Source of the DNA: a virus
Taxonomy: Duplodnaviria > Heunggongvirae > Uroviricota > Caudoviricetes
Length of the DNA: 64,000 bases
IMG/VR virus record: IMGVR_UViG_2925891887_000001
Strand: one strand, 5' to 3'
The position numbers were made by a program, and so were the translations under genes. The stretch's first letter is position 1. Each line of letters begins with the position of its first letter. The notes beneath the pieces are model-generated. The model did no database searches and was not told the origin of the DNA. It saw only the letters and a program-made list of their open reading frames with translations. This document shows positions 8,171 to 55,498 of the stretch, piece by piece.

Positions 8171-8584
8171 ATGGCAAGAGGTATGTATGTCTTATGCGAA
8201 ATTGAAGGTGTGCTGGCAAATACCAGCCATCGTAAATCTGTATCTGACTCGGATGCAGGCCAATTCATTGCCGGTGATGAACTCATTTTCCCCACCAGCC
8301 GTATGTTGCGTGGTTTTGCTCGCTCAGGGGCTGAAGTGGTGCTTATCAGTAGCCGCTCTGAAACTCTTGAAGCGCCCACTAAACGATGGCTGAAAGATTT
8401 TGGTGTTGATTACGACTGGCTTCACCTCGTACCGAATAGCACTAGTTATGAGAAGCATATTAAGCGCACATTAGCGGAGCATAAAGGCGATCTGCTTATC
8501 GCTGCGCTGGTGCACGATCCTCGACTCCGTGCCGCTTTAGCTGACTCTCATCATAGACCGGTCATCTATGAGGTGAGCAAATGA
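8171..8584 (+). CDS. hypothetical protein, possibly HAD-like hydrolase fold
   Basis: ATG overlapping thyA stop; hhhCEIEGVL (HAD motif I-like with Glu for Asp), VVLISS, GDLLIAALVHD; weak. Confidence 0.3.
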   Translation: MARGMYVLCEIEGVLANTSHRKSVSDSDAGQFIAGDELIFPTSRMLRGFARSGAEVVLISSRSETLEAPTKRWLKDFGVDYDWLHLVPNSTSYEKHIKRTLAEHKGDLLIAALVHDPRLRAALADSHHRPVIYEVSK

Positions 8585-9057
8585 AGATGATAGCTGCTGT
8601 TGGCCGTAACTATGAGATCGGCATAGCGAACGAACTGCCCTGGCGTTGTTCTACCGATCTGAAGCTATTTAAGAGACTCACCAAAAACGCCACTGTCGTT
8701 ATGGGGCGTAAAACGATGGAAAGTCTCAAACGCCCTCTTCCAGAGCGTCATAACCTCGTTTTGACGCGCTCTCATGGCTTTGTACCAAATGGATTCTACC
8801 CTGCTGGTGTGGATGATGTGTTGCGATTACCAGAGCCAGTGTGGGTGATTGGCGGGGAACAAATTTACTCGCTATTCATGCCGCATGTTGAAGAGATTTG
8901 GCTCTCCCACATCGGCGTTGATGTGCCAAACGCCGATGCATTCTTCCCGGCAAGCATGATGCGTAATTTAGGCTTTGTGCCTGTTGAAACAGCTTATACC
9001 CAACGAGCCAGCGAGGAAGAGCCTGGCTTTTCGCAGATCGTATACAGAAGGTCGTAA
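8581..9057 (+). CDS. folA: dihydrofolate reductase
   Basis: 158 aa; MIAAVGRNxxIG, LPW, VVMGRKTxESLxRPLPxR, VIGGxQIY motifs as in E. coli FolA. Confidence 0.85.
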   Translation: MKMIAAVGRNYEIGIANELPWRCSTDLKLFKRLTKNATVVMGRKTMESLKRPLPERHNLVLTRSHGFVPNGFYPAGVDDVLRLPEPVWVIGGEQIYSLFMPHVEEIWLSHIGVDVPNADAFFPASMMRNLGFVPVETAYTQRASEEEPGFSQIVYRRS

Positions 9058-18899: not shown

Positions 18900-19279
18900 T
18901 GTTTGGCATTGACGCACAGCGTATAGCCGCTTTTGCAAAAAGCCCTCTTGATAATCCCTTGTCTCGTAGTGAGCAAATGGAGCTGGCAAGGCTTTTTATT
19001 CACATTCAAAAACAGGCAGACGTTTTCAATAACATGCCTAATCAACCTATTCTGGATGGTCACATCCAGATGGTCATTAACAGTCATGAGAAAGGCTGGG
19101 CTGCAATCGTCCCCTGCACAATTACATACAGGTTGGCGAAAGAGGTTCAAGAGTTTCGAAAAGCCAGTGTCGAATCGGAGTCTACCAAAGCCGCAATAAA
19201 CACTCTTATTCGCATGGGGTTCACATGGACCGGTGGAGCCTACTGGCAAGCACCTCACCCCATTTTATCCGGCAATTAG
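18899..19279 (+). CDS. hypothetical protein (126 aa)
   Basis: ATG overlaps upstream stop. Confidence 0.4.
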   Translation: MFGIDAQRIAAFAKSPLDNPLSRSEQMELARLFIHIQKQADVFNNMPNQPILDGHIQMVINSHEKGWAAIVPCTITYRLAKEVQEFRKASVESESTKAAINTLIRMGFTWTGGAYWQAPHPILSGN

Positions 19280-19441
19280 ACGCTACAAATCCTTCGGCAT
19301 GAATAAATAAAGGCCATAAGTTGTGGCCTTAAATAAATTGTTTTCTACCTTTTCTTATTTGTGAAAATAACCACAACTAGAAAACAACGGAGTTAAGAAT
19401 GTCTAGTATTTCCGAAGCTCATATGTTCGCCGCTGGCGCTC

Positions 19442-19568
19442 GGTGATGCTGCCAACTTACTGATTTAGTGTATGATGGTGTTTTTGAGGTGCTCCAGTGG
19501 CTTCTGTTTCTATCAGCTGTCCCTCCTGTTCAGCTACTGACGGGGTGGTGCGTAACGGCAAAAGCACC
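19442..19568 (+). mobile_element. IS1 fragment (left terminal inverted repeat through insA codon 24 only)
   Basis: Identical to IS1 positions 1-127 and to the reverse complement of the complete IS1 at 54445-55212; identity stops abruptly inside insA. Confidence 0.9.
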
Positions 19569-19577
19569 ACCTTTTTA

Positions 19578-20678
19578 TCACACTGCGCGGAATGCGATTT
19601 CGCCAGGTATTACTTCACCTTGCCAATACATTTGGGCAGCAACGCGATCTGCGAGGTCACGATAAATAGCCGTAAATTCACTATCTGGACGACTAATAAC
19701 GGTTGGTGTTCCGTTATCCAGATCTTCACGAAGAGAGATATGAAGTGGCATTTGGCCTAACAACTGCGTGTTGTATTTCTCGGCCAGTTTCTGTGCGCCA
19801 CCGGTGCCAAAAATTGGCTCGTGATGACCGCAGTTACTGCAAATATGCACACTCATGTTTTCAACGATACCCAGTACCGGCACTTCGACTTTTTCGAACA
19901 TCACAATGCCTTTCTTCGCATCGATCAGCGCGATGTCTTGCGGCGTAGTTACCACAACCGCACCAGTTACAGGAATGTTCTGCGCCAGCGTCAATTGAAT
20001 ATCACCAGTGCCCGGTGGCATATCGAGAACGAGATAGTCCAGATCAGGCCACAGTGTTTCCTGCAACATCTGCATCAGCGCCTTGCTGGCCATCGGTCCA
20101 CGCCACACCATTGCATTGTCGTCGGTGACCAGATAACCAATAGAGTTGGTTGCCAGGCCATGAGACATGATAGGTGCCATGTGAGTACCGTCCGGTGAGG
20201 TTGGACGTTGGTTTTCCGCGCCCAGCATGGTTGGAATTGATGGACCATAGATATCGGCATCCAAAATACCAACTTTCGCACCTTCAGCAGCCAACGCCAG
20301 TGCCAGGTTTACCGCCGTGGAGGATTTACCCACGCCGCCCTTGCCCGAGCTGACGGCGATAATGTTCTTAACGCCATTAATGCCTGGTTGGTTTTTGACG
20401 CGCTTAAGCGTGGCAATGTTGTACGACAGCTTCCAGTCAATAGCCTTTGCGCCAGTGATACGGAGCAGATCACCACTACATTGCTCTTTCAGGTCTTCAA
20501 AAGGCTTATTCCACACGAAAGGCATGATTAGTTCGACATGCAGTGTGTCATCCATCAACGCAACATGGTGTAACGCTTTAAGCGTAGTCAGGTTGTGTTT
20601 CAGGGTTGGGTGCTGAAAATTAGCCAGCGTACCGGCTACCATTGCTCTCAGGGCATCCGGCGATTTGGACTCGCTCAT
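19578..20678 (-). CDS. apbC: Fe-S cluster carrier ATPase Mrp/ApbC (E. coli chromosomal gene)
   Basis: 366-aa ORF with deviant Walker [12 protein letters not shown], CxxC pair (ICSNCGHH) and near-identity to E. coli Mrp as I recall it. Confidence 0.9.
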
Positions 20679-20835
20679 CCCGTCTCCTTTATTTTAATTT
20701 GCGCAATTGTCGCCTTGTAGTGTACTCCAGCTACGACATTTAATCATTTATGAGAAATGCTGTTATCACATGGCAGACATAAGGCCATTTTGTTACTATC
20801 AAGCCCCTTTTCACTACAAAGAAGTAATGCCTACT

Positions 20836-22869
20836 ATGACCCAAGTCGCGAAGAAAATTCTGGTGACGTGCGCGCTGCCGTACGCTAACGGCTCAATCCA
20901 CCTCGGCCATATGCTGGAGCACATCCAGGCTGATGTCTGGGTTCGTTACCAGCGAATGCGCGGCCACGAGGTTAATTTCATCTGTGCCGACGATGCCCAC
21001 GGTACGCCGATCATGCTGAAAGCACAGCAGCTTGGTATCACACCGGAGCAGATGATTGGCGAAATGAGTCAGGAACACCAGACTGATTTCGCAGGCTTTA
21101 ACATCAGCTATGACAACTATCACTCGACGCACAGCGAAGAGAACCGTCAGTTGTCTGAGCTTATCTATACTCGCCTGAAAGAGAACGGTTTTATTAAAAA
21201 CCGTACTATCTCTCAGTTGTACGACCCGGAAAAAGGCATGTTCCTGCCGGATCGTTTTGTGAAAGGCACCTGCCCGAAATGTAAATCCCCGGATCAATAC
21301 GGCGATAACTGCGAAGTCTGCGGCGCGACCTACAGCCCGACTGAATTGATCGAGCCGAAATCGGTGGTTTCTGGTGCTACCCCGGTAATGCGTGATTCTG
21401 AACACTTCTTCTTTGATCTGCCCTCTTTCAGCGAAATGTTGCAGGCATGGACCCGCAGCGGTGCGTTGCAGGAGCAGGTGGCAAATAAAATGCAGGAGTG
21501 GTTTGAATCCGGCCTGCAACAGTGGGATATCTCCCGCGACGCGCCATACTTTGGTTTTGAAATTCCGAACGCGCCGGGCAAATATTTCTACGTCTGGCTG
21601 GACGCACCGATTGGCTACATGGGTTCTTTCAAGAATCTGTGCGACAAGCGCGGCGACAGCGTAAGCTTCGATGAATACTGGAAGAAAGACTCCACCGCCG
21701 AGCTGTACCACTTCATCGGTAAAGATATCGTTTACTTCCACAGCCTGTTCTGGCCTGCCATGCTGGAAGGCAGCAACTTCCGCAAGCCGACCAACCTGTT
21801 TGTTCATGGCTATGTGACGGTGAACGGCGCGAAGATGTCCAAGTCTCGCGGCACCTTTATTAAAGCCAGCACCTGGCTGAATCATTTTGACGCTGACAGC
21901 CTGCGTTACTACTACACTGCGAAACTCTCTTCGCGCATTGATGATATCGATCTCAACCTGGAGGATTTCGTTCAGCGCGTGAATGCCGATATCGTGAACA
22001 AAGTGGTTAACCTGGCGTCCCGTAACGCTGGCTTTATCAATAAGCGTTTTGACGGTGTGCTGGCAAGCGAGCTGGCTGACCCGCAGTTGTACAAAACCTT
22101 CACTGATGCCGCTGAAGTGATTGGTGAAGCGTGGGAAAGCCGCGAATTTGGTAAAGCTATCCGTGAAATCATGGCACTGGCTGACCTGGCTAACCGCTAT
22201 GTCGACGAGCAGGCTCCTTGGGTAGTCGCAAAACAGGAAGGTCGCGATGCTGACCTGCAGGCGATTTGCTCAATGGGCATCAACCTGTTCCGCGTGCTGA
22301 TGACTTACCTGAAACCGGTACTGCCGAAACTGACAGAACGTGCGGAAGCATTCCTGAATACGGAACTGACCTGGGATGGCATCCAGCAACCGCTGCTGGG
22401 CCATAAAGTGAATCCGTTCAAAGCACTGTATAACCGTATCGACATGAAACAGGTGGAAGCATTGGTGGAAGCGTCTAAAGAAGAAGTGAAAGCTACTGCC
22501 GCGCCAGTTACTGGCCCGCTGGCAGACGACCCGATTCAGGAAACCATCACCTTTGACGACTTTGCCAAAGTTGACCTGCGCGTGGCACTGATCGAAAACG
22601 CAGAGTTTGTTGAAGGTTCTGACAAACTGCTGCGCCTGACGCTGGATCTCGGCGGTGAAAAACGCAATGTCTTCTCAGGCATCCGTTCTGCTTATCCAGA
22701 CCCACAGGCACTGATTGGTCGTCACACCATTATGGTGGCTAACCTGGCTCCGCGTAAGATGCGCTTCGGCATCTCCGAAGGTATGGTGATGGCTGCTGGC
22801 CCCGGCGGGAAAGATATCTTCCTGTTAAGCCCGGATGCTGGTGCTAAACCTGGCCACCAGGTTAAGTAA
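20836..22869 (+). CDS. metG: methionyl-tRNA synthetase (E. coli chromosomal gene)
   Basis: 677 aa from [26 protein letters not shown]; HIGH-type motif, KMSKS, zinc knuckle CPKC...CEVCG; essentially identical to E. coli MetG. Confidence 0.95.
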
Positions 22870-22889
22870 TTAAGCAACCTCTGTTCGCA

Positions 22890-22918
22890 ATGCCCGGCAA
22901 CACGCTGGGCATTTTCAT
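22890..22918 (+). terminator. terminator-like hairpin downstream of metG
   Basis: atgcccggcaacacgctgggcat followed by tttcat. Confidence 0.4.
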
Positions 22919-22952
22919 ATAGACACAATCCCTCCTGATTTACACAAGCCTT

Positions 22953-22967
22953 AAAACAATTTGTTTT
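22953..22967. promoter_or_regulatory. motif A palindrome AAAACAATTTGTTTT (second copy at 23002-23017)
   Basis: First phage-type element to the right of the host segment. Confidence 0.5.
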
Positions 22968-23030
22968 CTACCTTTTGTTGATTGAGATAATAAGCCACAT
23001 AAGAAAACAAATTGTTTCGGAGTGGTTGAA

Positions 23031-23330
23031 ATGTTGAACATTACCCAAGCCTACCAGGTGGCATTGATCAGTTCATCTCATACATCAGAGGAAGATGCTC
23101 GCCGATTCATGATCGCAAGCAATGAGCTGGATTGGGTTTCACAAATTGATGGCGGTTGTATTGTCCACGCCGGGTTACAGGATGATGTCTGGAAAGACGA
23201 CTTGCGTCGATATGGTATATCCGAAGGCGCGATTGCTAACATTCAGAAAGTACTTGATGTAGGCTTTGACTCTGTACATTTTGATTGTGGTGCGCCGATC
23301 GTTGAAGGGCTTGAGTGCTGGTGTTGGTAG
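23031..23330 (+). CDS. hypothetical protein (99 aa)
   Basis: Internal ATG after SD GGAGTGG. Confidence 0.4.
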   Translation: MLNITQAYQVALISSSHTSEEDARRFMIASNELDWVSQIDGGCIVHAGLQDDVWKDDLRRYGISEGAIANIQKVLDVGFDSVHFDCGAPIVEGLECWCW

Positions 23331-23500
23331 AGTGTATAAGCGGATCAATGAGTTACGGAAACAGTTAATAATGAGGAGCTTGTAATAAGCTGTATACCCT
23401 AGAAAAGCTAGACTAGGGAATAAAATGACGTGAAACTGGGCGAGACAGTAAATAATTCCGAATGATAATTGAACAAATAACCCCTTGCTCGGAGCTTGGA

Positions 23501-24691
23501 ATGACTGATACCGCTTTTTCAAAATCGTTACAAAAAGAAGTCGATCCTGAGCAGTACTTGGCGCTAAAGAATTTAGATGACAGCTCGGTTCATGCTATTG
23601 CCCGTGACGATATCATCTGCCCCATTTGCAAAGTTGGAGGTGGTTCGTTCGTTAGAGCCACTAGGAATGGTGGCTATCACAAGAAGGCGCATTTCAGATT
23701 TACCGGTGAAGATGGTCAAGGCCATCATCCATCATGTGATTTCTATGGAGATAGACTAACATCTGAGGTGAAGCAGCACCTTGTCTCATTCACAAAAGAT
23801 CGAACAAAGTATTCGCAGGTAATACGAAAGCTGGTCTGTGCCGGCATACAGGAAGGGATATTTACTCAAGAAAAAATGTGGCAGATGAGGGAATGGTTCT
23901 TCAATAAGCGAAAGGATTCCACATTTGAAATATGGTTAGAAAGCGAGCATTTAGACTGGCTTTATTATATTAGTGGGTTACGTGATGCATATCTAGCATG
24001 GACAACTCCTGATATTCTACCTTTCGCGCCCATTCAGGTTACTGTGCCTGGTTTTTCTTGGAAGCGTGCGATTGACAAAGAGGTGCTAAGAGTTCACATC
24101 AAGACTCTCCAGCAATTGCGTGAAATTTCAGTCTCACATAGAGACATTGCTGTAATCTTAGAACACATAAACAATAATCGTGACCGCACAATTCTCGATC
24201 CATCGCATTTGGAGGACGAGATAAGTAAGACCTGTAAGCTTACTAGTTTTGTGATGGGCAATTACATTGAGTTTCAGACAAAAACGGTTAGCGACAGAGC
24301 ATACGGGGAAGCTAAGTTTCTGGCATTTGCAGCACTTTTGTTGTTCGTGTCAGATTGGGACCTCAACATTGCTATTGGTAAGTTTTCTAAGATTGCCAGA
24401 GTGAAGGAGGTTGATGACATGCTGGCTGGTAATTTCATTGGTCTTAATCCTTACTTCCGATACGACCTGGCTAATGCAGTGAAGAGATTGCAGGATAACT
24501 GGCCGATTGAATACCAAGAGTTGGAGCATTGGAATGTTGAGAAATCCATGCGTGACGCATATGAAAAGTGGCGTGCGACAGAGCCTGAATTCGCTCCACC
24601 CCTATTGCCAGACTTGTATATTGCCAAACATGAGAAAGAAGTCGCACAAGACGAGCAAGTCAGGCAGTGGATTAAGAACGGGGATGTTTGA
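23501..24691 (+). CDS. hypothetical protein with N-terminal zinc-ribbon-like motif (396 aa)
   Basis: SD GGAG; CPICKVGGGS ... HHPSCDFYG cysteine/histidine cluster; no family recognised. Confidence 0.45.
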   Translation: MTDTAFSKSLQKEVDPEQYLALKNLDDSSVHAIARDDIICPICKVGGGSFVRATRNGGYHKKAHFRFTGEDGQGHHPSCDFYGDRLTSEVKQHLVSFTKDRTKYSQVIRKLVCAGIQEGIFTQEKMWQMREWFFNKRKDSTFEIWLESEHLDWLYYISGLRDAYLAWTTPDILPFAPIQVTVPGFSWKRAIDKEVLRVHIKTLQQLREISVSHRDIAVILEHINNNRDRTILDPSHLEDEISKTCKLTSFVMGNYIEFQTKTVSDRAYGEAKFLAFAALLLFVSDWDLNIAIGKFSKIARVKEVDDMLAGNFIGLNPYFRYDLANAVKRLQDNWPIEYQELEHWNVEKSMRDAYEKWRATEPEFAPPLLPDLYIAKHEKEVAQDEQVRQWIKNGDV

Positions 24692-24829
24692 GTGTAATTA
24701 GCTTAATCAATCAGTTGATAATGGCGGTCACAATTTGATTCTTTTCTATAAGAATCCGTTGATCGCCACTACTCTTCTTCCATACCTGCAATCACACCTT
24801 TAAATATCAATAGGTTAACGTTGTTTATA

Positions 24830-25675
24830 CCAATAAGAAAACAACTAAATAACAGATCAACGAAACATCAACGCTTTCACCCGATTTGGTCTAAAAAATT
24901 GACGTTTTCACACATCACTTCTTATACCCGTAATTCTACGCAGCAGATAGCGCTACAGCGTCCAAATTTCACCACAGACGACTCAACACACTACCAACAA
25001 AAACACACGCTCAAAATCGCTCCCGTTGCGTTACACAACCATATAAACAACTTATTTTCAGGTATAACAAAACAACTAAATAACACACATGCCATTACCC
25101 AAAACAACCAACCTCTTTATGGCAGGCTACCGAAAAGACCCACCTCTTCTCCCCAGGCTACCGGACAACCAACCTAACTTTCACAGGCAATCCGAAAACA
25201 TTCATACGCGCGATACCCACGACACGCCATTACCCAAACAGCGAAGAAACACCAGAATCACTGAAAACCCAACGAAGCCTGTTACCGCAAGGATTCTCTC
25301 AATCCCAAAAGACACGAAACAGAACAATCACGGGAAACGCCATTACCCAATACACGAATAACTACAAAAGCCTTTCACACACTCCAGACAAACAACTCAA
25401 ACACAATAACGAAAGGAATCGCCCACCTGCCATTACTCCATACACGGAGAAGAACAATCACCAAAACGACGAGAACACCCCATAGAAGAACCACCGCAAA
25501 ACGAACGAAACCACATACACCGACAGAGAGAACAACACACCCAATTCACCAACAGAAATAGTCGCCGTATAGAACGTTCTGGAAGGAGTGAGCATTAACG
25601 CCTATAGAGAGGTTGAGACAGATAAAACACAACATGTATAGCGAAGAAGCCAGGTATGTATAAGTGGGGAGGGAA
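24830..25675 (+). ncRNA. candidate long G-depleted (A/C-rich) non-coding transcript
   Basis: About 12% G over about 730 bp; begins at a half motif-A promoter-like element; four spaced GCCATTACCC copies; ends at terminator 25676-25697; only low-complexity chance ORFs. Confidence 0.3.
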
Positions 25676-25697
25676 GGAGGGGTGTCGCCTCCTTTTT
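25676..25697 (+). terminator. intrinsic terminator
   Basis: ggagg...cctcc stem followed by TTTTT. Confidence 0.5.
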
Positions 25698-25744
25698 CGT
25701 ATTTATTCAACTCCTGATTTTATCCCCCGTAACACCCCTACGGT

Positions 25745-25900
25745 CAGCCTTCGGTCCATACAGGGAAAAGGTTGCATCCCGCTACAGAAACGGCTGGGTT
25801 GCCTTCGGGGAACGGCTGGAGGTTTTCAGGGAAACGGTCGAGTTGCCTGTGTGGATTTCGGGAAAAGGCTCGATGCCGGTTCAGGAACGGTGGCGTACCG
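25745..25900. repeat. array of at least 6 degenerate 22-24-bp repeats with core (C/T)AGGGAAAcGG
   Basis: cagggaaaaggttgc, cagaaacggctggg, cggggaacggctgg, cagggaaacggtcg, cgggaaaaggctcg, caggaacggtggcg. Confidence 0.6.
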
Positions 25901-26271
25901 GTATAGCGAGAGGGAGAGTTGCGGCTACCCACCTGTAATGTGCGGGAAGAAGAGAGGCGCTCACGTAGGCGGACTTGCTTACCGCTGGATTCCCTCTGAA
26001 TGCCCAGCTACAGCGTAATTGTGCCAGACAGCCAGCGGGTCACAATCGATTTCAGTAGGTTTTTGGGGAGAGGATTACTCTGCCACCAGCCACTTTCGGC
26101 CACTAAATCAGAATAATGTAAAAAGTGCACTCGGTACTGAACCTGAAAACTCACTGCCAAAACCACATTCACCGGAATAAAATCCTTTTTCGCCTGTGCG
26201 TTATTGCGATAATAACACCAACAAGTAAACAACATGTTTAGACGTTATATAAACGAAGTGAGGATGAAGAG

Positions 26272-26490
26272 ATGATTAAGATGCCTGTGACGGTTGAGGT
26301 GTGGGGCGTGGATTCCCTGGCTGAGTGTCTGGATGCAGTGGGGCCGGAGTTGTACCGCAAGTTGTGGTCGTTCGTCCCGGCAGAAGGGGAACCGCCCAAG
26401 GGGAAGGATATCTGGCACCTGCTGAGTGAAGATGAAAAGCGGGAGCTGGTGGACGCGGTACACAGCGAGTTCCCGGGCGACGAAGATTAA
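26272..26490 (+). CDS. hypothetical small acidic protein (72 aa)
   Basis: SD GAGGATGAAGAG then ATG; terminator immediately downstream. Confidence 0.45.
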   Translation: MIKMPVTVEVWGVDSLAECLDAVGPELYRKLWSFVPAEGEPPKGKDIWHLLSEDEKRELVDAVHSEFPGDED

Positions 26491-26497
26491 GAGTGAG

Positions 26498-26520
26498 GCC
26501 ACCAGCACGGTGGCTTTTGT
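26498..26520 (+). terminator. intrinsic terminator
   Basis: gccaccagcacggtggc followed by TTTTGT. Confidence 0.55.
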
Positions 26521-26628
26521 CGCTATTAACCTCCGGGCAGCGCAACACCGTAACGATATACTTTGTGGCCGTTTTCTTACTGGTATTGTTTACGCAATTT
26601 AGAAAACAACATGTTTAAGGATTGCTTT

Positions 26629-26958
26629 ATGTTTACAAATATCGACATCAACCAAATCAAGAAATTAACTCAAAAAGAGTTTGATCAGTTTTATGAGTTA
26701 GAAGGTTGGTCTTCCACTCTGATCAATTCAAGATGGGTGCTGGAGCTGATGACTCGTGATGACGCACCTGCTTTGATGATTTGCGACATGGGTGAAGATG
26801 CTGACTTTATGGATATGAGCGAATTTTGTGTGGACACATACAACCGCAGCCAGAAGTACTACTTCACATGCGATAGCGAAAATGACGTGATTTCTAAGGT
26901 CTATCTTCACCTCGTCCAGCATTGGGACGTTCAGGAGTTTCTTGAAGTATTCGAGTAA
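26629..26958 (+). CDS. hypothetical protein (about 109 aa)
   Basis: ATG with AAGGA 9 nt upstream; alternative start 26611. Confidence 0.45.
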   Translation: MFTNIDINQIKKLTQKEFDQFYELEGWSSTLINSRWVLELMTRDDAPALMICDMGEDADFMDMSEFCVDTYNRSQKYYFTCDSENDVISKVYLHLVQHWDVQEFLEVFE

Positions 26959-27111
26959 CCCCAACCAAAGCCAGCATTGCTGGCTTAATTTCTCTATAGA
27001 CGCAGGGAAGAACCTGCATATCGCTCATGCGCCTGATCAATATGCTTTGTAGCCGTTTTCTTACTGGTATTATTTACGCCATTGAGAAAACAAGTTGTTT
27101 ACGGAGTTGTA

Positions 27112-27423
27112 ATGAAAAAATCATTGGTTCTTGGTCTGGACAAAGACCAGAAGAGAAAAGAGAAGCCTGCGCTGGTTGCTCAATTAACTTTGCTGGACAT
27201 CGTTGCCAATGGGACCTCTATTCGTCTGTTCCGTGAAACAGCGGTGTCTTTCGATAAAAACACCTTTACTCGTTATGTAATGAATGTTCGTCGCCAGCGT
27301 GGAAAAGGCTGGGTGGCATTTCAAAGAATGTGGCCGGAACATCAGCTCGAACTGGCTTTGATGGAAGTTAACCGCGTGGCCCAGCAAGAGATTCAGAGAG
27401 CATCAGTGATGGCAATAGCCTGA
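27112..27423 (+). CDS. hypothetical protein (103 aa)
   Basis: SD ACGGAG; motif A at 27085-27100. Confidence 0.45.
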   Translation: MKKSLVLGLDKDQKRKEKPALVAQLTLLDIVANGTSIRLFRETAVSFDKNTFTRYVMNVRRQRGKGWVAFQRMWPEHQLELALMEVNRVAQQEIQRASVMAIA

Positions 27424-27458
27424 TAATGTGCAAGTGGCAATTAGTCGACAGTACGACA

Positions 27459-27486
27459 GCCCCGCCATCCTTACGGGGCTTTTTTG
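27459..27486 (+). terminator. intrinsic terminator
   Basis: gccccgccatccttacggggc followed by TTTTTTG. Confidence 0.6.
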
Positions 27487-27490
27487 TATT

Positions 27491-27506
27491 GTAAGTACAT
27501 ACTTAC
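27491..27506. promoter_or_regulatory. motif B palindrome GTAAGTACATACTTAC
   Basis: Perfect inverted repeat between terminator and gene 27550. Confidence 0.5.
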
Positions 27507-27549
27507 GATCATAGAATAGAAAAATAACCAATACACTACGGAGAGTGAA

Positions 27550-27945
27550 ATGACCGTTAAACGCGAAAAACTGACAGTTGATGTTTACTATGCCTCTGAA
27601 ACCGCCGAAGGTAAGAATGTGGCAAAAATCACCGTTGTTACGTACAACACCGAAACTGGTGCCGAAGTACAGGCCAGTACGATCGTGCGTAAAGGTGATG
27701 CCTCCGGCGGCGAGTACGCGACTCAATACCAGTCCATTCTCGATGCAACTGACCCGCTGCTGCTGAAAATCGAGAACTACTTCCGCCAGGTTGATGAAGA
27801 GGTGTTTGAAACCATGATGAATATGGTTAACACCGTATTCGCCTCCAGCCTGAATACCAACACTACCTGGATTGGTCAGTACGGCCTGCGCATTACCTCT
27901 GGCATTCCTGCCGACACCTTAATCCCTGAAAGCGTATTCGCTTAA
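27550..27945 (+). CDS. hypothetical protein (131 aa)
   Basis: SD CGGAGAG then ATG. Confidence 0.5.
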   Translation: MTVKREKLTVDVYYASETAEGKNVAKITVVTYNTETGAEVQASTIVRKGDASGGEYATQYQSILDATDPLLLKIENYFRQVDEEVFETMMNMVNTVFASSLNTNTTWIGQYGLRITSGIPADTLIPESVFA

Positions 27946-27953
27946 TCCTCTTT

Positions 27954-27982
27954 AAATGGCGCGTAAACCGCGCCATTTTATT
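27954..27982 (+). terminator. intrinsic terminator
   Basis: aatggcgcgtaaaccgcgccatt followed by TTATT. Confidence 0.55.
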
Positions 27983-28062
27983 AAGCCCGATAACAATTTG
28001 TTTTCTGCCTTATCTGATTTGTGAAAATGATTTCACTGAAGCAAGTTAATAAGGAAACCATC

Positions 28063-28437
28063 ATGGGACTTGATATCTATATCGAGACACAGCCTAAAAA
28101 CGATCTGAATAACGAGGCATCCAGAAAGCAGGTTGCTTACTTCCGTAAGTTCAATGCGCTCGTTGGGTGGATGGAGCGCAACGTAGGTGAAGTCGAAAAT
28201 TGTGAGCTTTTAGAATTAACGATGAATGACATTTGTTTTCTGAAGGCTCATTTGATGCACATAAACGAAAGTAATTGCGAAGAGTACTTGCCTACCCGGG
28301 AAGGTTTTTTCTTCGGCAGTCAGGAGTACGATGAAGGTTACTGGCATGATGTGGGGCAGTTGAAAGAGCTTGTGGAAGATCTGATTAAGAACCACGACTT
28401 TCACAATAACAGACTGACCTTCTGCGCCTGGTGGTAA
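28063..28437 (+). CDS. hypothetical protein (124 aa)
   Basis: ATG after SD AAGGAAACC; motif A at 27990-28004. Confidence 0.45.
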   Translation: MGLDIYIETQPKNDLNNEASRKQVAYFRKFNALVGWMERNVGEVENCELLELTMNDICFLKAHLMHINESNCEEYLPTREGFFFGSQEYDEGYWHDVGQLKELVEDLIKNHDFHNNRLTFCAWW

Positions 28438-28439
28438 AT

Positions 28440-28583
28440 ATGGGCGATTTCAAGAAACGCCTGAAGGAAAGAGCCGAGATGGTCAGAAAGCAAAACGCCT
28501 CTTCTGTCATCAGATACGCAAGGCAGTTTAGTCGCAACAACAAATCAGTTGAGGAAAAGATCCTTAGCGTAATCGTGCGATAA
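28440..28583 (+). CDS. small basic protein (about 47 aa)
   Basis: ATG 3 nt after upstream stop; below ORF-track cutoff. Confidence 0.25.
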   Translation: MGDFKKRLKERAEMVRKQNASSVIRYARQFSRNNKSVEEKILSVIVR

Positions 28584-28609
28584 TTATTAAGGCCATCAGC
28601 ATTGGTGGC

Positions 28610-28725
28610 CTTAAATGACCATCTTGTTTCCCGCAGGCTAAAAACACCAACCTCTTACCTCCAGGCAACCGACAAACCCACCTGTTCCCGTCCGGCTACC
28701 GCAACTTTCCACTTTGACGCCTTAT
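28610..28725. repeat. second A/C-rich G-poor segment (related to 24830-25560)
   Basis: caggctaaaaacaccaacctcttacctccaggcaaccgacaaacccacctgttcccgtccggctaccg parallels caggctaccgaaaagacccacctcttctccccaggctaccggacaacc near 25.12 kb. Confidence 0.5.
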
Positions 28726-28751
28726 TCGTACAACGATAATTAACACCAACA

Positions 28752-28766
28752 AGAAAACAATTTGTT
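28752..28766. promoter_or_regulatory. motif A palindrome AGAAAACAATTTGTT
   Basis: 21 nt upstream of ATG 28788. Confidence 0.5.
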
Positions 28767-28787
28767 ATTTACGATAAGGAATTAATC

Positions 28788-29270
28788 ATGAATTTTATCG
28801 CTACTGTAAACGCACCCGCACATGGCAATATCGCTGTAACGTTCTCTGACATTGAAAAACGAGTACTTGGTGCATGGCGCGACAATGAGACGGTAGAACT
28901 GTCAGCACAAGAAAAATGCATTATTGCACGCGACATCATTGGCAATCGTCGTTACTCGCGGGTATTTGAGAAAGCGTATGTGGTAAATTCTGGATTCGGA
29001 ACGTTCGTCTTTCCGGTGCGCTCCGGGCGATTCTGCCAGTCCAAGCTGATTGAGTTCGCTACGCAGATTTCTTTCTGGATTAAAACTCAATCGTCGTTCA
29101 AATTTTCCGACGATGAAGCAGTATCGCAGGGGATGCGGATCGCCAACAATGCAATTAAATGCAAAAACATTACGTATACCGCTGGCGTTGATACATGGAA
29201 ACTGTTTTGCGCTAACTTTATGCTGAATGTATACGCAAGCAACCGCATCCACATCCTTGATGGCGTGTAA
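28788..29270 (+). CDS. hypothetical protein (160 aa)
   Basis: SD TAAGGA upstream of ATG. Confidence 0.45.
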   Translation: MNFIATVNAPAHGNIAVTFSDIEKRVLGAWRDNETVELSAQEKCIIARDIIGNRRYSRVFEKAYVVNSGFGTFVFPVRSGRFCQSKLIEFATQISFWIKTQSSFKFSDDEAVSQGMRIANNAIKCKNITYTAGVDTWKLFCANFMLNVYASNRIHILDGV

Positions 29271-29318
29271 CTGAGAAGAGGGCCAGAAACGGCCCTTTCT
29301 CTATAGCCACCAGCTGCC

Positions 29319-29479
29319 GCAGGGAAATTTTCAGAAACGGCGAGGAACGTATTCATGAGCCGACGGGGAACGGCCAGGATTTTTTCGGGAAACGGCTGCA
29401 TTTGCCTTTGTGTAGAAAAAACATCGGGAAGCTGGTGGAATCCAACCAGCGGTTGTCGGACAGGTGAGCGGGGAAAATT
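29319..29479. repeat. second array of degenerate GGGAAAcGG-core repeats
   Basis: cagggaaattttcagaaacgg, cgacggggaacggccagg, tttcgggaaacggctgc, catcgggaagctggtgg, gcggggaaaatt. Confidence 0.55.
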
Positions 29480-29805
29480 ATGATGACTTTCGTCACCTGA
29501 GACATCCAGATTTCTTTCGTAGCATAATCACATACGTGATTAAGTGGTGTGATTATGTGAAAAATCACGCGCACATAATACGCGAGCGGATACGGAACAA
29601 AACAAAATGCCGATCCGCGCCGACAAATAAACGCGGATCATAAAGCAAGACTAAAAGCCAATGATTAACTATGCGCTATAACGCGTTTTAAGCGCGTTAA
29701 TGTGTTAAGTAATGGGTATGTACTGGCAAGGATATAAAAGCGCGTCTATGGCGTTATTTTGGCGCTTATTTTTATGTTGTTGGAGTGAGTTAAAGACAAT
29801 AAAAA

Positions 29806-29876
29806 ACGCGCCATCAATGGCGCGTTATTGTGGAAGTATTGGAAACGAAAAAAGCGCCCATAGTGGGCGCTCGATT
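29806..29876. terminator. pair of bidirectional terminator hairpins at convergence of rightward and leftward transcription
   Basis: aacgcgccatcaatggcgcgtt and agcgcccatagtgggcgct, each flanked by A/T runs on both strands. Confidence 0.55.
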
Positions 29877-30107
29877 TTATTTGTGTAAACTGATTTTAAA
29901 TCCCATTTCTACGAACGCTTTTAACATTAAAAATATATCAGCGTCGTTCACGTCTGCTTTTTTTCGCTCCTGGTCGCTCAATAAGTCAATTTTGCGCGTC
30001 GTTTCATCTATAAGCTCGACTACACGCCCAGCGTAACCAGCGATCCCAGCGATGCGATTAACATAATATTCATTATGGACGTTAACGCCAGCGATAAGAA
30101 CAAACAT
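29877..30107 (-). CDS. hypothetical protein (76 aa), AT-rich cassette
   Basis: Leftward ORF, last gene before convergent terminators. Confidence 0.4.
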   Translation of the reverse strand: MFVLIAGVNVHNEYYVNRIAGIAGYAGRVVELIDETTRKIDLLSDQERKKADVNDADIFLMLKAFVEMGFKISLHK

Positions 30108-30128
30108 GATTAAGCTCCTTAAAAAAAA

Positions 30129-30332
30129 TTAAATAGAATTTTGAAGTTTTCCGATTAATGCGCTTAAGCGTAAGTATTCACGTTTGCGCTTGCAATCTCG
30201 CTTGCTGTTAAGCAAATCAGAAAACGTAAAATTTAATTGGTCGCGTTGCGCGATCAAATCGTCGATTAATTCCAGTTTATAAGCGCGATAATTTGCGCGA
30301 TATTCTGCGCGGATCTTGTCATAGCTGACCAT
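30129..30332 (-). CDS. hypothetical small coiled-coil protein (67 aa), AT-rich cassette
   Basis: Start moved to internal Met with AAGGAG 8 nt upstream; hairpin agcgcccacaatgggcgct just upstream. Confidence 0.4.
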   Translation of the reverse strand: MVSYDKIRAEYRANYRAYKLELIDDLIAQRDQLNFTFSDLLNSKRDCKRKREYLRLSALIGKLQNSI

Positions 30333-30380
30333 CTTTAAAGCTCCTTTAAAGCGCCCATTGTGGGCGCTTGATTCCATTAA

Positions 30381-31031
30381 TTACGCTTTAAAAGCATCAG
30401 CTAAATAATTGTAGAAATCATTCTTGATAAAGCGATATTGCTGTGTACCAGCTTTGGCGCTCCCAGCTCCTTTGACTTTTTCAACAAGTCCGAGACGTTC
30501 GCAAAGATTGATCAACTGGTTGGCTTGAGTATAGCCAGCGTCCAATTTAATTTCACACGCTTTTTTAGCTTCATTCATTAAATCGAAAACAGCGCCATTG
30601 GTGAACGTGTCGATCTCGTCGTTAATCATATCGATTAAAGCGAATACACGAGATCCAGACATATCAGCGATGGAATAAACGCATTTACCAGATTTAATGG
30701 ATTTAACCAGATAAACCAGTTTTTCCAGTGAATAACTATTAGTCATTGCATCACGGAAAAATACTTCTGGCGCTTGTTTGCTTGCTTTAATCGCATAGTA
30801 GAAAACAGAGCATAATTTTTCGTCTTCTACTGCGTTTACGACGTTGTTGATGAAGTAAGCAAGTTTAGTGGTCGCAGCTTGCATATTTGCTTTGTCTGCT
30901 TTGGTGTGCGTACCATTTTTATAATGTTCGTTATATGTTTGAGTTGCCAGATCTGCTTTTTCGCGCAGCTCGTCGGATACAATAGATGCAGCTTCAATGA
31001 TGGACTTTTTAGAAATGATAATGTTAGCCAT
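30381..31031 (-). CDS. hypothetical protein (216 aa), AT-rich cassette
   Basis: Start at Met-4 of track ORF (SD AAGGA); C-terminal region resembles a winged-helix segment. Confidence 0.45.
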   Translation of the reverse strand: MANIIISKKSIIEAASIVSDELREKADLATQTYNEHYKNGTHTKADKANMQAATTKLAYFINNVVNAVEDEKLCSVFYYAIKASKQAPEVFFRDAMTNSYSLEKLVYLVKSIKSGKCVYSIADMSGSRVFALIDMINDEIDTFTNGAVFDLMNEAKKACEIKLDAGYTQANQLINLCERLGLVEKVKGAGSAKAGTQQYRFIKNDFYNYLADAFKA

Positions 31032-31283
31032 GATGGACATCCTTACGAAAAATTAAAATGAATTTATTTTTTACTGTCGTTAGCTAGCTCGCTTTCGACG
31101 AGTTCAATTATCGATACGTGAAAAAAGATTGCAAGTATTTTTTTTAAATTTTCTGCAGGGATGAAAGTCCTAGAAATAAAAGCGAGATCGTCGAAGGTGT
31201 TCCCTAAATAAATAATCAATTCGGGCCTTTAACCTTATATATTTATACGGAGTGGCATCGAAAGAGTTTTAAATGAATGGCAT

Positions 31284-31312
31284 GTAAAATAATAACCGGA
31301 CTTAGCCGGTTA
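31284..31312 (-). terminator. intrinsic terminator inside leftward cassette
   Basis: Minus-strand taaccggctaagtccggtta followed by TTATTTTAC. Confidence 0.5.
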
Positions 31313-31326
31313 TTACCCTTATAGAT

Positions 31327-31851
31327 TTAAAATGGAAGGATTCGTTCAACCCAATCGAAGAAAACAAGTATTTTTCTGCCGTCTTCTAACTTAAGAGTGA
31401 CCTGGCAAGCATCAACGCCTCTTGACACCCCTTCTATTTCACGACCGTCTGTCATGTAGACCCTTATAGATTGGTCGTTTTGATAAGCCTTGCGACATAT
31501 CGCAAAAAAGTCACGGCGTGATGGCTGATTGTCAACATAGTCTGGATGTATTGTTAGCCTACCTTTGAACTCGCGAGCAATGTCATCGATTACACCTGAT
31601 TCAATTGTGCTAATGCGCTCAAGTGGGAGTCTTATACGATTTTCTTTATCATATGGAATCGGGCATAAATCTAGCTTATTGCGTGAAGGCATTGTCCCCT
31701 GAACGTACATGCAAAACACCTGACCGTCTTCAAGCGTGACTCTTACAGGAATGTTGTTCTTCCGCCAGAACATAAGTATGTTCTCAGCATGTTCGTAGTC
31801 TCGCGGCCAGACTTCAGCCGGTATGCCGTAGGTGATGTCCAATGTTCTCAT
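31327..31851 (-). CDS. hypothetical protein (174 aa), AT-rich cassette
   Basis: 4-nt overlap with upstream gene (translational coupling). Confidence 0.45.
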   Translation of the reverse strand: MRTLDITYGIPAEVWPRDYEHAENILMFWRKNNIPVRVTLEDGQVFCMYVQGTMPSRNKLDLCPIPYDKENRIRLPLERISTIESGVIDDIAREFKGRLTIHPDYVDNQPSRRDFFAICRKAYQNDQSIRVYMTDGREIEGVSRGVDACQVTLKLEDGRKILVFFDWVERILPF

Positions 31852-32462
31852 TCTGATACTCTTAGAGGTGTTTTCAGCAATCCAAATTTAAATTCTTTAT
31901 TACCAACGACCAAGAAGGGGACTTCAACATAGATTTTTTTATCGACGGATTTAGAGTTCGCTGTTTTCTTGATGTCGCGAACGATACGTTTTGTTGTGTT
32001 TTCATCAATAAACAATACCTTCCCACTGGTATTCCCTTCAGTCTTAGCATAAGTGACAATAGGTTCTTCATTGCCAACTCTGATGTTCACTTGGCAACCC
32101 GTTGTAGCCATTTCATCACAATAGAGTGTACCGTCTTGAATTTCTAAAACAATTCCAGATGGCTTCATGGCCTCGTTAGAGCTTACATTAGCGTTTTCTG
32201 GTACTGCGGTCCCGTTAATTTGCAACCGTAATCTTTCTGTTCCTGCATGAAGTATTGTTTCTTCTGCGTTATCTGAGAATCTATACCAGACTGGTTGAAT
32301 CAGACCTCGTGATTTGTATTTTAGTACGTCTTCAGAAGTATACATGCTGTACGTTTTTTGCATGTCAGAGACGAAATCTGATAATGCGTTGGCGGAAAAC
32401 GCCGGGAGGCATATACAAGCAAGGAATAACGAAAGTTTCATTTTCATATCATGATAATCCAA
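31848..32462 (-). CDS. predicted exported protein with signal peptide (204 aa), AT-rich cassette
   Basis: N-terminal MKMKLSLFLACICLPAFSANA with AxA-type cleavage site. Confidence 0.45.
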   Translation of the reverse strand: MDYHDMKMKLSLFLACICLPAFSANALSDFVSDMQKTYSMYTSEDVLKYKSRGLIQPVWYRFSDNAEETILHAGTERLRLQINGTAVPENANVSSNEAMKPSGIVLEIQDGTLYCDEMATTGCQVNIRVGNEEPIVTYAKTEGNTSGKVLFIDENTTKRIVRDIKKTANSKSVDKKIYVEVPFLVVGNKEFKFGLLKTPLRVSE

Positions 32463-54261: not shown

Positions 54262-54459
54262 CTATCGACTGCCCCGACCGGGGCAGTCTCACAAGGATGT
54301 GAGATGGAAAGACAAACGTTTAATTGGTATCCAGATTACGAATCTGAAAAGAGCGTAAAACCGAATGTAACGGTACTTAATTTTGGTGATGACTACGAGC
54401 AGCGACAGGCTCAAGGTCTTAATCGTATTAAAGAAGAATGGTCGGGTAATGACTCCAAC

Positions 54460-54963
54460 TTATTGATAGTGTTTTATGTTCAGATAATGCCCGATGACTT
54501 TGTCATGCAGCTCCACCGATTTTGAGAACGACAGCGACTTCCGTCCCAGCCGTGCCAGGTGCTGCCTCAGATTCAGGTTATGCCGCTCAATTCGCTGCGT
54601 ATATCGCTTGCTGATTACGTGCAGCTTTCCCTTCAGGCGGGATTCATACAGCGGCCAGCCATCCGTCATCCATATCACCACGTCAAAGGGTGACAGCAGG
54701 CTCATAAGACGCCCCAGCGTCGCCATAGTGCGTTCACCGAATACGTGCGCAACAACCGTCTTCCGGAGCCTGTCATACGCGTAAAACAGCCAGCGCTGGC
54801 GCGATTTAGCCCCGACATAGCCCCACTGTTCGTCCATTTCCGCGCAGACGATGACGTCACTGCCCGGCTGTATGCGCGAGGTTACCGACTGCGGCCTGAG
54901 TTTTTTAAGTGACGTAAAATCGTGTTGAGGCCAACGCCCATAATGCGGGCAGTTGCCCGGCAT
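54460..54963 (-). CDS. insB: IS1 InsB reading frame (transposase made as InsAB' by frameshift)
   Basis: ORF in -1 frame overlapping insA 3' end; matches IS1 insB. Confidence 0.85.
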
Positions 54964-55157
54964 CCAACGCCATTCATGGCCATATCAATGATTTTCTGGT
55001 GCGTACCGGGTTGAGAAGCGGTGTAAGTGAACTGCAGTTGCCATGTTTTACGGCAGTGAGAGCAGAGATAGCGCTGATGTCCGGCGGTGCTTTTGCCGTT
55101 ACGCACCACCCCGTCAGTAGCTGAACAGGAGGGACAGCTGATAGAAACAGAAGCCAC
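54882..55157 (-). CDS. insA: IS1 InsA
   Basis: [43 protein letters not shown]... matches IS1 InsA. Confidence 0.9.
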
Positions 55158-55498
55158 TGGAGCACCTCAAAAACACCATCATACACTAAATCAGTAAGTT
55201 GGCAGCATCACCGAATGGTCGTTAACCTTTACCAGATCATACAACGAAATTAATGCAATCGATGACTTCCTGACTGAGCGAGCAGGCGTTGAGTCGTTCT
55301 ATTGGGTTAATCCAAGAGGAAAACGGATTGTAGTTGTATGTGACAGTCATACGGTCAAGCGATATCAGGGGTACTGTGTCTTAACTGCTACATTCAGACA
55401 AGTATTTGAGGCTTAAGTATCTGGATAAGTAAGTACTAATTTACTATCATTGTGGCGCTGACAGGATGTTAGCGCCTACTTATTTCAAGGATGAAACA

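Follow-up and report, generated by a model that had tools for sequence, protein, structure and literature searches.

The gene at positions 23501..24691 (+) of the IMG/VR virus record IMGVR_UViG_2925891887_000001, a 64,000-nucleotide stretch of Caudoviricetes DNA whose full length is here called the window, encodes a 396-aa protein, named X throughout. X is optional cargo, swapped at a fixed slot of an SSU5-type phage-plasmid, and the family to which it belongs is recurrently adjacent to Gabija and to other bacterial defence systems. Because X occupies an optional cassette, has recurrent Gabija and other defence neighbours, is found in cargo-region contexts, is rare in viral contigs and sits in a slot from which a different gene is expressed in a sister plasmid, the reading favoured here, at slightly less than even confidence, is that X is a cargo protein with an immunity-related function, missing from the catalogues, and that it works together with nuclease-helicase defence of the Gabija type.

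The open reading frame (ORF) for X spans 23462..24691 (+), and its correct reading is the 396 aa that begin with the ATG at 23501. An equivalent start, MTDTAF/Y, is present in 29 of 29 full-length sequences of a close alignment (A1, in which one further row, P0028, is a 356-aa call without the N-terminus), and all 58 sequences of a wider alignment (A2) open with M-x-x-T-A-F/Y-S. The RefSeq coding sequence WP_047659412.1 has the same boundaries, and the protein matches PHROG 12525, a group of unknown function, with an E value of 1.5e-209. Between X and the copy carried by pHCM2-type plasmids, nonsynonymous divergence (dN) is 0.062 and synonymous divergence (dS) 0.49, giving a dN/dS of 0.13. The conserved start, the GGAG six nucleotides upstream, this low ratio and the family matches thus mark the ORF as a real gene, well conserved and under purifying selection. 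The features of the gene and its cassette are as follows.

23501..24691 (+): coding sequence of protein X, 396 aa, stop codon included (PHROG 12525; RefSeq WP_047659412.1; conserved start, dN/dS and AlphaFold2 (AF2) model)
23491-23494 (+): Shine-Dalgarno sequence GGAG, 6 nt before the ATG at 23501, read from the sequence
23442..23469 (+): weak sigma-70-like promoter match, GAGACA-16-GATAAT, within the cassette (consensus scan, 9/12)
23330..24703 (+): swappable cassette, consisting of X with 170 bp upstream and 12 bp downstream (BLAST against p09EL50)

Promoter-like matches are not enriched in the region around 23442..23469 in the consensus scan, and the match listed above may be X's own promoter. 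An original prediction, made from the letters of the window, had described the region of X as somewhat AT-richer than the backbone; its GC content is slightly lower (43.4% against a window mean of 46.9%), but this falls within normal scatter, at the 13th percentile among equal-sized segments and about one standard deviation below the mean.

The window itself is, by its sequence, an SSU5-type circular phage-plasmid, as follows from its identity to known plasmids, their annotated gene content and the SSU5-type matches of X. Over positions 22800-25200 the window shares 100% identity with p22AR0322A (NZ_CP195468.1), a circular E. coli plasmid of 109 kb; for the other plasmids listed, which measure about 107-113 kb, identity is 98.5-99.4%. 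The annotation of p22AR0322A includes a complete siphovirus structural module, terminase, portal and ParB-type partition genes, together with a DnaB-like helicase, nrdAB, thyA and a RepB-family initiator that lies outside the window. The protein resembling X is 57% identical in Salmonella phage SSU5 and 69% identical in Klebsiella SSU5-type phages.

The optional nature of X is evident from the distribution of its cassette among relatives of this element. Among 5426 complete E. coli genomes, 239 have the element's terminase, in every case on a plasmid, and 35 of these 239 plasmids carry X, every copy at 99% identity or more; about 85% of the E. coli relatives thus lack X while the flanks are kept. 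Plasmid p09EL50 aligns over window positions 19561-23329 and 24704-31993, and the 1374 bp between them are swapped for a 220-bp segment with a 61-aa ORF unrelated to X, a version seen in 96 genomes. In FDAARGOS_1281 and pLF82 the slot contains 99-aa and 244-aa genes, and in another plasmid type 61-aa and 186-aa genes; there are thus at least three alternative gene contents, with boundaries that are clean against p09EL50. Tested as a possible paralogue, the 244-aa slot gene is unrelated to X, and neither of the replacement genes of 244 aa and 186 aa has a PDB sequence match. The suggestion that X is a single-gene accessory insert is therefore well founded, resting on presence in 35 of 239 relatives, clean replacement in p09EL50 and the other contents of the slot. 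Homology to a core primase or initiator, which had been named as grounds for abandoning that suggestion, was looked for and none was found; the RepB initiator lies elsewhere.

Beyond complete E. coli genomes, the X family is present on 266 plasmids in PLSDB, about 175 of them SSU5-type copies at 60% identity or more, and roughly 800 PLSDB plasmids carry an SSU5-type terminase at 80% identity or more. The SSU5-type carriers of X come from Klebsiella, Salmonella, Escherichia and Enterobacter, and include the 106.7-kb pHCM2 type at 87% identity. Defence cargo is documented on SSU5-type elements, and a DefenseFinder-type survey recorded pHCM2-like plasmids, which carry X at 87%, as being without a defence system (bioRxiv 10.1101/2025.09.12.675607).

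Expression from the slot is documented for a sister plasmid, pLF82 ("Cyrano"), which lacks X, and whose transcriptome is informative on the slot only. In supplementary file 2 of PMC9928086, the 244-aa slot gene CYRAN_102 is listed as transcribed in lysogeny at a normalised value of 57, and the ORF upstream of it stands at about 7. That CYRAN_102 is transcribed while the upstream ORF is not suggests, by analogy, that cargo in this slot carries its own promoter.

The family of X is evidently undescribed, horizontally mobile and new to the defence catalogues compared (PADLOC 2.0, in which X is not included); a literature search by accession, by SSU5_107 and by PHROG identifier returned no paper. 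A word-indexed search yielded 34 clusters, which all come from Enterobacterales and for the most part lie on ~110-kb plasmids, and a profile search yielded 177 cluster representatives (at 50% identity) with E<=0.001, from Proteobacteria and cyanobacteria, nearly all of them 360-400 aa long, matching over their full length and free of fusions to other domains. When one genome per species was scanned with a 14-sequence sub-alignment as the profile, 55 loci were recovered in Alpha- and Gammaproteobacteria and cyanobacteria, 48 of which were analysed. Most family members found lie in bacterial chromosomal islands, not in phages, and IMG/VR holds only about 30 family loci, mostly in SSU5-type elements or prophages. 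On IncX1 conjugative plasmids, copies of X at 29% identity adjoin an Abi gene or a NACHT gene. In lambdoid prophages X is flanked on one side by O, P/DnaC and ren-like genes and on the opposite side by ninB, ninG and Q, and in one lambdoid prophage type its neighbours are a SocA_Panacea-domain gene and a pair of pyocin and pyocin-immunity genes. In Pectobacterium, a 78%-identical X belongs to a chromosomal islet of two genes that is bordered by ychF and by transporter genes.

The association with Gabija emerges from a survey of three genes on either side of X at the 48 analysed loci, which come from other species, many of them Alphaproteobacteria. In 23 of the 48, an OLD-family ATPase-TOPRIM protein and a superfamily 1 (SF1) helicase lie within 4 kb of X, one of these loci (L041) having yielded the helicase only. 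PADLOC scores these neighbours as GajA (E 2e-209) and GajB (E 8e-235). At five loci with a 576-aa OLD protein, an ORF of 479-530 aa is found between the OLD gene and X, and the best PDB match of the one that was scanned, the 479-aa ORF of L032, is B. cereus GajB. The arrangements number at least five, and include X convergent with GajB across a 48-bp gap, GajA-GajB-X and X-GajA-GajB in co-directional order, and X followed by one or two genes and then a convergent GajB-GajA pair. X is convergent with Gabija in nine loci, and the gaps to its neighbours are 48-232 bp. The Gabija subtypes beside X are themselves diverse, with GajA ranging from 543 to 811 aa and GajB less than 30% identical between groups. 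Pairwise identities of X and of GajB co-vary (Pearson 0.89, Spearman 0.63), and X (dN/dS 0.11), GajB (0.065) and GajA (0.06) are all under purifying selection. In the same locus pair, dS is 0.82 for X as compared to 0.42 for Gabija, and in other pairs X is the less diverged; this difference in dS indicates that the association of X and Gabija has been re-made or maintained through reassortment, more than passed on as one inherited block.

Other defence systems are also found beside X. Lamassu genes adjoin it at three loci (L007, L021 and L033), in the form of LmuA at E=0, LmuB, and a SIR2 and SMC-like pair. Further neighbours are a NERD and UvrD combination (L030), AbiJ (L052), a YhcG nuclease with an integrase and, at L038 and L039, a Hachiman-like pair of 260-aa and 1168-aa DEAD-helicase proteins. 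In total, a known defence system lies within about three genes of X at 30 of the 48 loci, a raw count, uncorrected for background, from a small sample in which some of the neighbours were scanned. When X is collapsed at 70% identity, 22 clusters result, seven of which adjoin Gabija and four another known system (11/22). These raw counts may indicate that X adjoins defence systems far more often than expected by chance.

A 387-aa protein that lacks a Pfam match is encoded directly after X, on the same strand and with a 24-bp gap, at L008 (9170-10333), L018, L020 and one more locus, and this follower occurs in loci where one or two genes separate X from Gabija. Profile comparison, in which it was tested as a paralogue, found it unrelated to X. 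Gabija genes themselves were seen neither in the window nor in the p22AR0322A annotation over 30000-109442. Gabija is described as a two-gene system in a review of OLD nucleases (PMC10568477), and a "GajC" has been reported (PMC13069673); that protein is MazF-like and unrelated to X, and the identification of X with the published GajC was rejected.

X consists of a small N-terminal domain that carries the predicted metal site and a large helical domain.

23501..23800 (+): N-terminal domain, residues ~1-100, two helices and a four-stranded zinc ribbon (invariant columns, model)
23801..24688 (+): helical C-terminal domain, residues ~101-396, with the motifs LVCxGIE, MRxWFF (R130), AFxALLLFxSxW and GNxIGLNPF (N311)

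An AF2 model of X built from the 58-sequence alignment has a mean predicted local distance difference test (pLDDT) of 92.2 and a predicted template modelling score (pTM) of 0.87. In this model the N-terminal domain has a beta-hairpin and two helices together with a ribbon whose four strands, at residues 48-67, fall between the ligand pairs C40-x2-C43 and H75-x3-C79; the remainder, of about 300 residues, is a helical domain. Across the 58 sequences, which reach down to about 20% identity, M1, S7, E13, C40, C43, H75 and C79 are invariant, so that both C40-P-x-C43 and H75-x3-C79 are strictly kept in the N-terminal domain, where an HFRF strand is also conserved. Nearly invariant positions are T4, D15, Q18, D37, V51, F65, F67, R130, W132, A275, L279, L281, W286, A291, N311, G314 and P317. 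The conserved C-terminal motifs include a hydrophobic helix, AFxALLLFxSxW, and a loop, GNxIGLNPF. The Cys/His cluster that had been noticed at the start of the protein is present, as C40, C43, H64, H75, H76 and C79, and within it C40, C43, H75 and C79 form a predicted CCHC zinc site of the zinc-ribbon kind.

Apart from PHROG 12525, similarity searches place X in no catalogued family. Neither X nor the 58 family members matched a Pfam family or a PADLOC profile, and the PADLOC and Pfam scans of X returned no ATPase, TOPRIM, helicase, GajA or GajB. A PDB sequence search with the close alignment A1 found nothing, and a fold search with an earlier and less good model, not the one described above, found no match. 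The original remark that the C-terminal region of about 300 aa holds no recognisable motif accordingly stands, for Pfam, for PDB sequences and for that fold search. Seven isolated N-terminal domains searched against Pfam at E<=10 gave scattered zinc-ribbon noise only. About 15 family members (among them P0066, P0092, P0132, P0133, P0135 and P0006-P0013) end in an acidic stretch and an aromatic residue resembling the C-terminus of single-stranded DNA-binding protein (SSB), for example DDLDDIPF, WDDIF, EDDLPF, FDDIDF, VDFDDF or IDF, and such tails could dock onto proteins that partner SSB. The copy in the window lacks this tail, the E. coli protein ending in WIKNGDV.

Downstream of X lies a non-coding region. 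Positions 24704-26271, about 1.5 kb, contain no credible ORF and are conserved over the SSU5 supergroup, pairwise identity being about 62% with the elements of the SSU5, Klebsiella and pHCM2 types. On the + strand, G is strikingly scarce and A+C abundant over the first ~800 nt (24820-25560), where repeats of the GCCATTACCCAA type occur, and a G-rich part comes next; the iteron-like GCCATTACCCAA repeat occurs four times in the region. No tandem repeats were found in 22870-26600, and an Rfam scan of 22000-28000 found nothing. In pLF82, an ORF called inside this region stands at the detection floor in lysogeny, according to supplementary file 2 of PMC9928086. It is possible that 24704-26271 is a lytic origin or another DNA element. 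The region is kept at about 95% identity in plasmids lacking X and is present in all slot variants, and since it is retained with or without X it does not depend on the gene. The original prediction had placed X between two anomalous features, a host/phage junction and this non-coding region. That picture does not survive: the supposed junction does not exist, the stretch in question (apbC-metG) being cargo of the phage-plasmid in a window that matches a circular 109-kb plasmid, and the non-coding region is independent of X.

How X might act is most readily pictured in terms of a contribution to defence, as opposed to opposition to it. Under the cooperative reading favoured here, the X family would take part in conflicts among bacteria, phages and other mobile elements. 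The protein would be made while the element resides as a plasmid, that is, in lysogeny, its N-terminal CCHC zinc ribbon would contact either DNA or a protein that processes DNA, and assembly or signalling would fall to the helical domain. X would cooperate with Gabija-type immunity, composed of the GajA OLD nuclease and the GajB UvrD helicase; in many bacteria the putative partner is encoded beside X, whereas the plasmid-borne X described here would either join a host-encoded system in trans or work by itself. Several observations weigh against such a role. X has no known phenotype and no recognisable catalytic or effector domain. About half of the family loci have no Gabija next door, and all of the SSU5-type, IncX1 and prophage copies lack an adjoining Gabija. 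In lambdoid prophages X occupies the early-right operon region, which is normally of the lytic phase and suits an anti-defence or takeover gene better. The truly independent associations are modest in number, at about seven lineages, and the evidence for expression from the slot comes from a different gene, CYRAN_102, and not from X. A second reading, which is possible though doubtful, adds X to Gabija immunity as a third component: a zinc-ribbon protein, mobile and transcribed on its own, whose N-terminal domain would be eIF2-beta/eIF5-like, that would set recognition or tolerance by Gabija-type complexes, and that phage-plasmids and prophages would carry alone to exploit or tune the host's Gabija in trans. 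As such, X could mark or protect particular DNA ends or replication intermediates.

The main rival, rated as unlikely, is that X is an anti-defence or immune-modulating protein that shields the element on which it travels, be it phage-plasmid, prophage or conjugative plasmid, by blunting immunity of the Gabija type, and that beside Gabija it is an antidote or regulator sparing the carrying element. In temperate elements X occupies regions of early genes: in lambdoid prophages it comes after O/P/ren-like genes and before ninB/Q, and in SSU5-type elements its slot follows an early-type repeated motif; it is also carried by conjugative IncX1 plasmids. The recurrent link is to Gabija over any one other system, as would fit a dedicated modulator, and the SSB-like acidic tails of a minority of members could compete for host DNA-repair partners. 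Yet family members are mainly located in chromosomal islands and not in phages, and the adjoining GajA and GajB are intact and under strong purifying selection, which is hard to square with a resident inhibitor. Moreover, X also neighbours Lamassu, Hachiman-like and AbiJ genes, has no sequence similarity to PDB chains, Gabija-inhibitor complexes included, and is absent from the anti-defence catalogues that have been applied to these plasmids. An improbable alternative would have X as a DNA-binding transcription regulator that uses its zinc ribbon as a DNA reader and controls neighbouring cargo or defence genes. The zinc-ribbon N-terminal domain, the adjacency to several different systems and the spacing of 48-232 bp to the neighbours, which implies no translational coupling, would all be consistent with such a regulator; however, at 375-400 aa the protein is large for one, Pfam gives no match to a helix-turn-helix, WYL or other known DNA-binding family, X is convergent with Gabija in nine loci, and in the Pectobacterium islet and the phage-plasmid slot it stands alone with nothing obvious to control. 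Least probable is a replication or recombination factor, for example an initiator for which the adjoining 1.5-kb non-coding repeat region would serve as lytic origin. That conserved region, with its four iteron-like repeats, begins right after X, the ORF called there is at the transcription floor in pLF82 lysogeny (in the supplementary file cited above), X comes after the O and P genes in lambdoid prophages, and some members have SSB-like tails. Against these points, the region is kept in plasmids without X, most E. coli relatives do without the gene, no such region accompanies the stand-alone copies in chromosomes or those on IncX1 plasmids, and X shows no similarity to primases or initiators, the RepB initiator being outside the window. 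An initiator dedicated to the adjoining region was rejected on this pattern of presence and absence, X occurring in 35 of 239 plasmids and the region always being kept.

The immediate neighbours of X in the window are metG, a DUF5983 ORF and the non-coding region, and phage-plasmid genes flank apbC-metG on both sides.

19578-22869: apbC and metG, full-length, ~51-53% GC (RefSeq annotation)
19497-19571: IS1 transposase remnant, beside apbC

The apbC-metG pair (metG encoding methionyl-tRNA synthetase) is bacterial-type cargo common to the E. coli SSU5-type plasmids examined. A second variable region lies on the far side of apbC, at window positions ~19000-19560, between a 381-nt hypothetical gene and apbC. 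In sister plasmids (L061, L062 and L063) it holds an S24 peptidase gene and differing sets of small genes, in NZ_CP062814.1 it holds a complete type I restriction-modification system, and in the window only the IS1 remnant is left. Elsewhere in the window, 8581-9057 (+) encodes a trimethoprim-resistant dihydrofolate reductase, DfrA51 (RefSeq), within a nucleotide-metabolism module where it adjoins thymidylate synthase; dfrA50 and dfrA51 in phage-plasmids are reportedly the subject of a published paper (PMC12217456). An IS1A element (~54460-55157) splits a phage tail protein gene at 54304-55416, and the annotation marks a later tail-fibre gene as partial, so that virion production by this copy of the element may be defective. 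A motif, AGAAAACAA-n-TTGTTT, within which lies the palindrome AAACAAnTTGTTT, has 24 copies in the window as compared to 1.3 expected, at sites that include 22954-23017, 26224-26239, 26601-26616, 27085-27103, 27988-28006 and 28752-28770. Small ORFs of the early region have most of the copies at their starts, either overlapping them or a short distance upstream, and corresponding places in SSU5 also have the motif; it is probably a shared promoter or operator of the early regulon.

Gabija is among the commonest anti-phage systems, being present in more than 15% of genomes according to PMC10781630, and its discrimination of self from non-self is described as unknown in PMC12407980. A family that travels repeatedly with different Gabija subtypes, and that stands outside current catalogues, offers a testable handle on this question. 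Clinically widespread SSU5/pHCM2-type phage-plasmids carry X, among them the pHCM2 type of S. Typhi, for which surveys list "no defence systems". Should X prove to act in immunity or counter-immunity, it would affect the interactions of these elements and their hosts with other phages.

Comparison with known systems brings out both what X shares and where it departs. The N-terminal domain has a weak profile resemblance to the N-terminal domain of eIF5 and the zinc domain of aIF2-beta, a family (Pfam PF01873) that is archaeal and eukaryotic in distribution and has a role in translation initiation. With the wider profile of X, the PDB matches have E values of 0.015 and 0.36, below significance, and pairwise hhalign gives a probability of 84%, aligning X residues 8-108 with eIF5 residues 55-153. 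E-L-(D/G) is aligned, the CPxC of X pairs with CPEC, and its AHHPxCDF pairs with THHKLCTF, whereas X has (H/C)64 and H75-x3-C79 where eIF5 has its second CxxC knuckle, and no Pfam match to that family is reported for X; the similarity is treated as a lead only. The CoiA-type N-terminal zinc finger has the pattern CPxC ... HFxH ... C, which X resembles in its CP-x-C, its basic strand ending in HF-x-(H/F) and its distal Cys. This is a resemblance only, since in X no PD-(D/E)xK nuclease domain follows and seven N-terminal domains gave no Pfam match at E<=10. X likewise differs from the known anti-Gabija proteins with solved structures, having no sequence similarity to the solved inhibitor chains. 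As for Gabija itself, an OLD-family ATPase-TOPRIM nuclease with a UvrD-like helicase, relatives of X neighbour such pairs in 23 of 48 loci, but X is distinct from both GajA and GajB, motifs of an ATPase, a TOPRIM domain or a helicase being absent from it, and the window locus lacks an adjacent gajA or gajB, adjacency holding only for distant homologues. A further parallel is with the single-gene swap-slot defence cargo of the P2 old locus and of P1 and SSU5 phage-plasmids. Although X, unlike that cargo, matches no catalogued defence family in PADLOC, it is likewise one gene exchanged between fixed flanks, in a slot whose gene is expressed in lysogeny by the sister plasmid pLF82.

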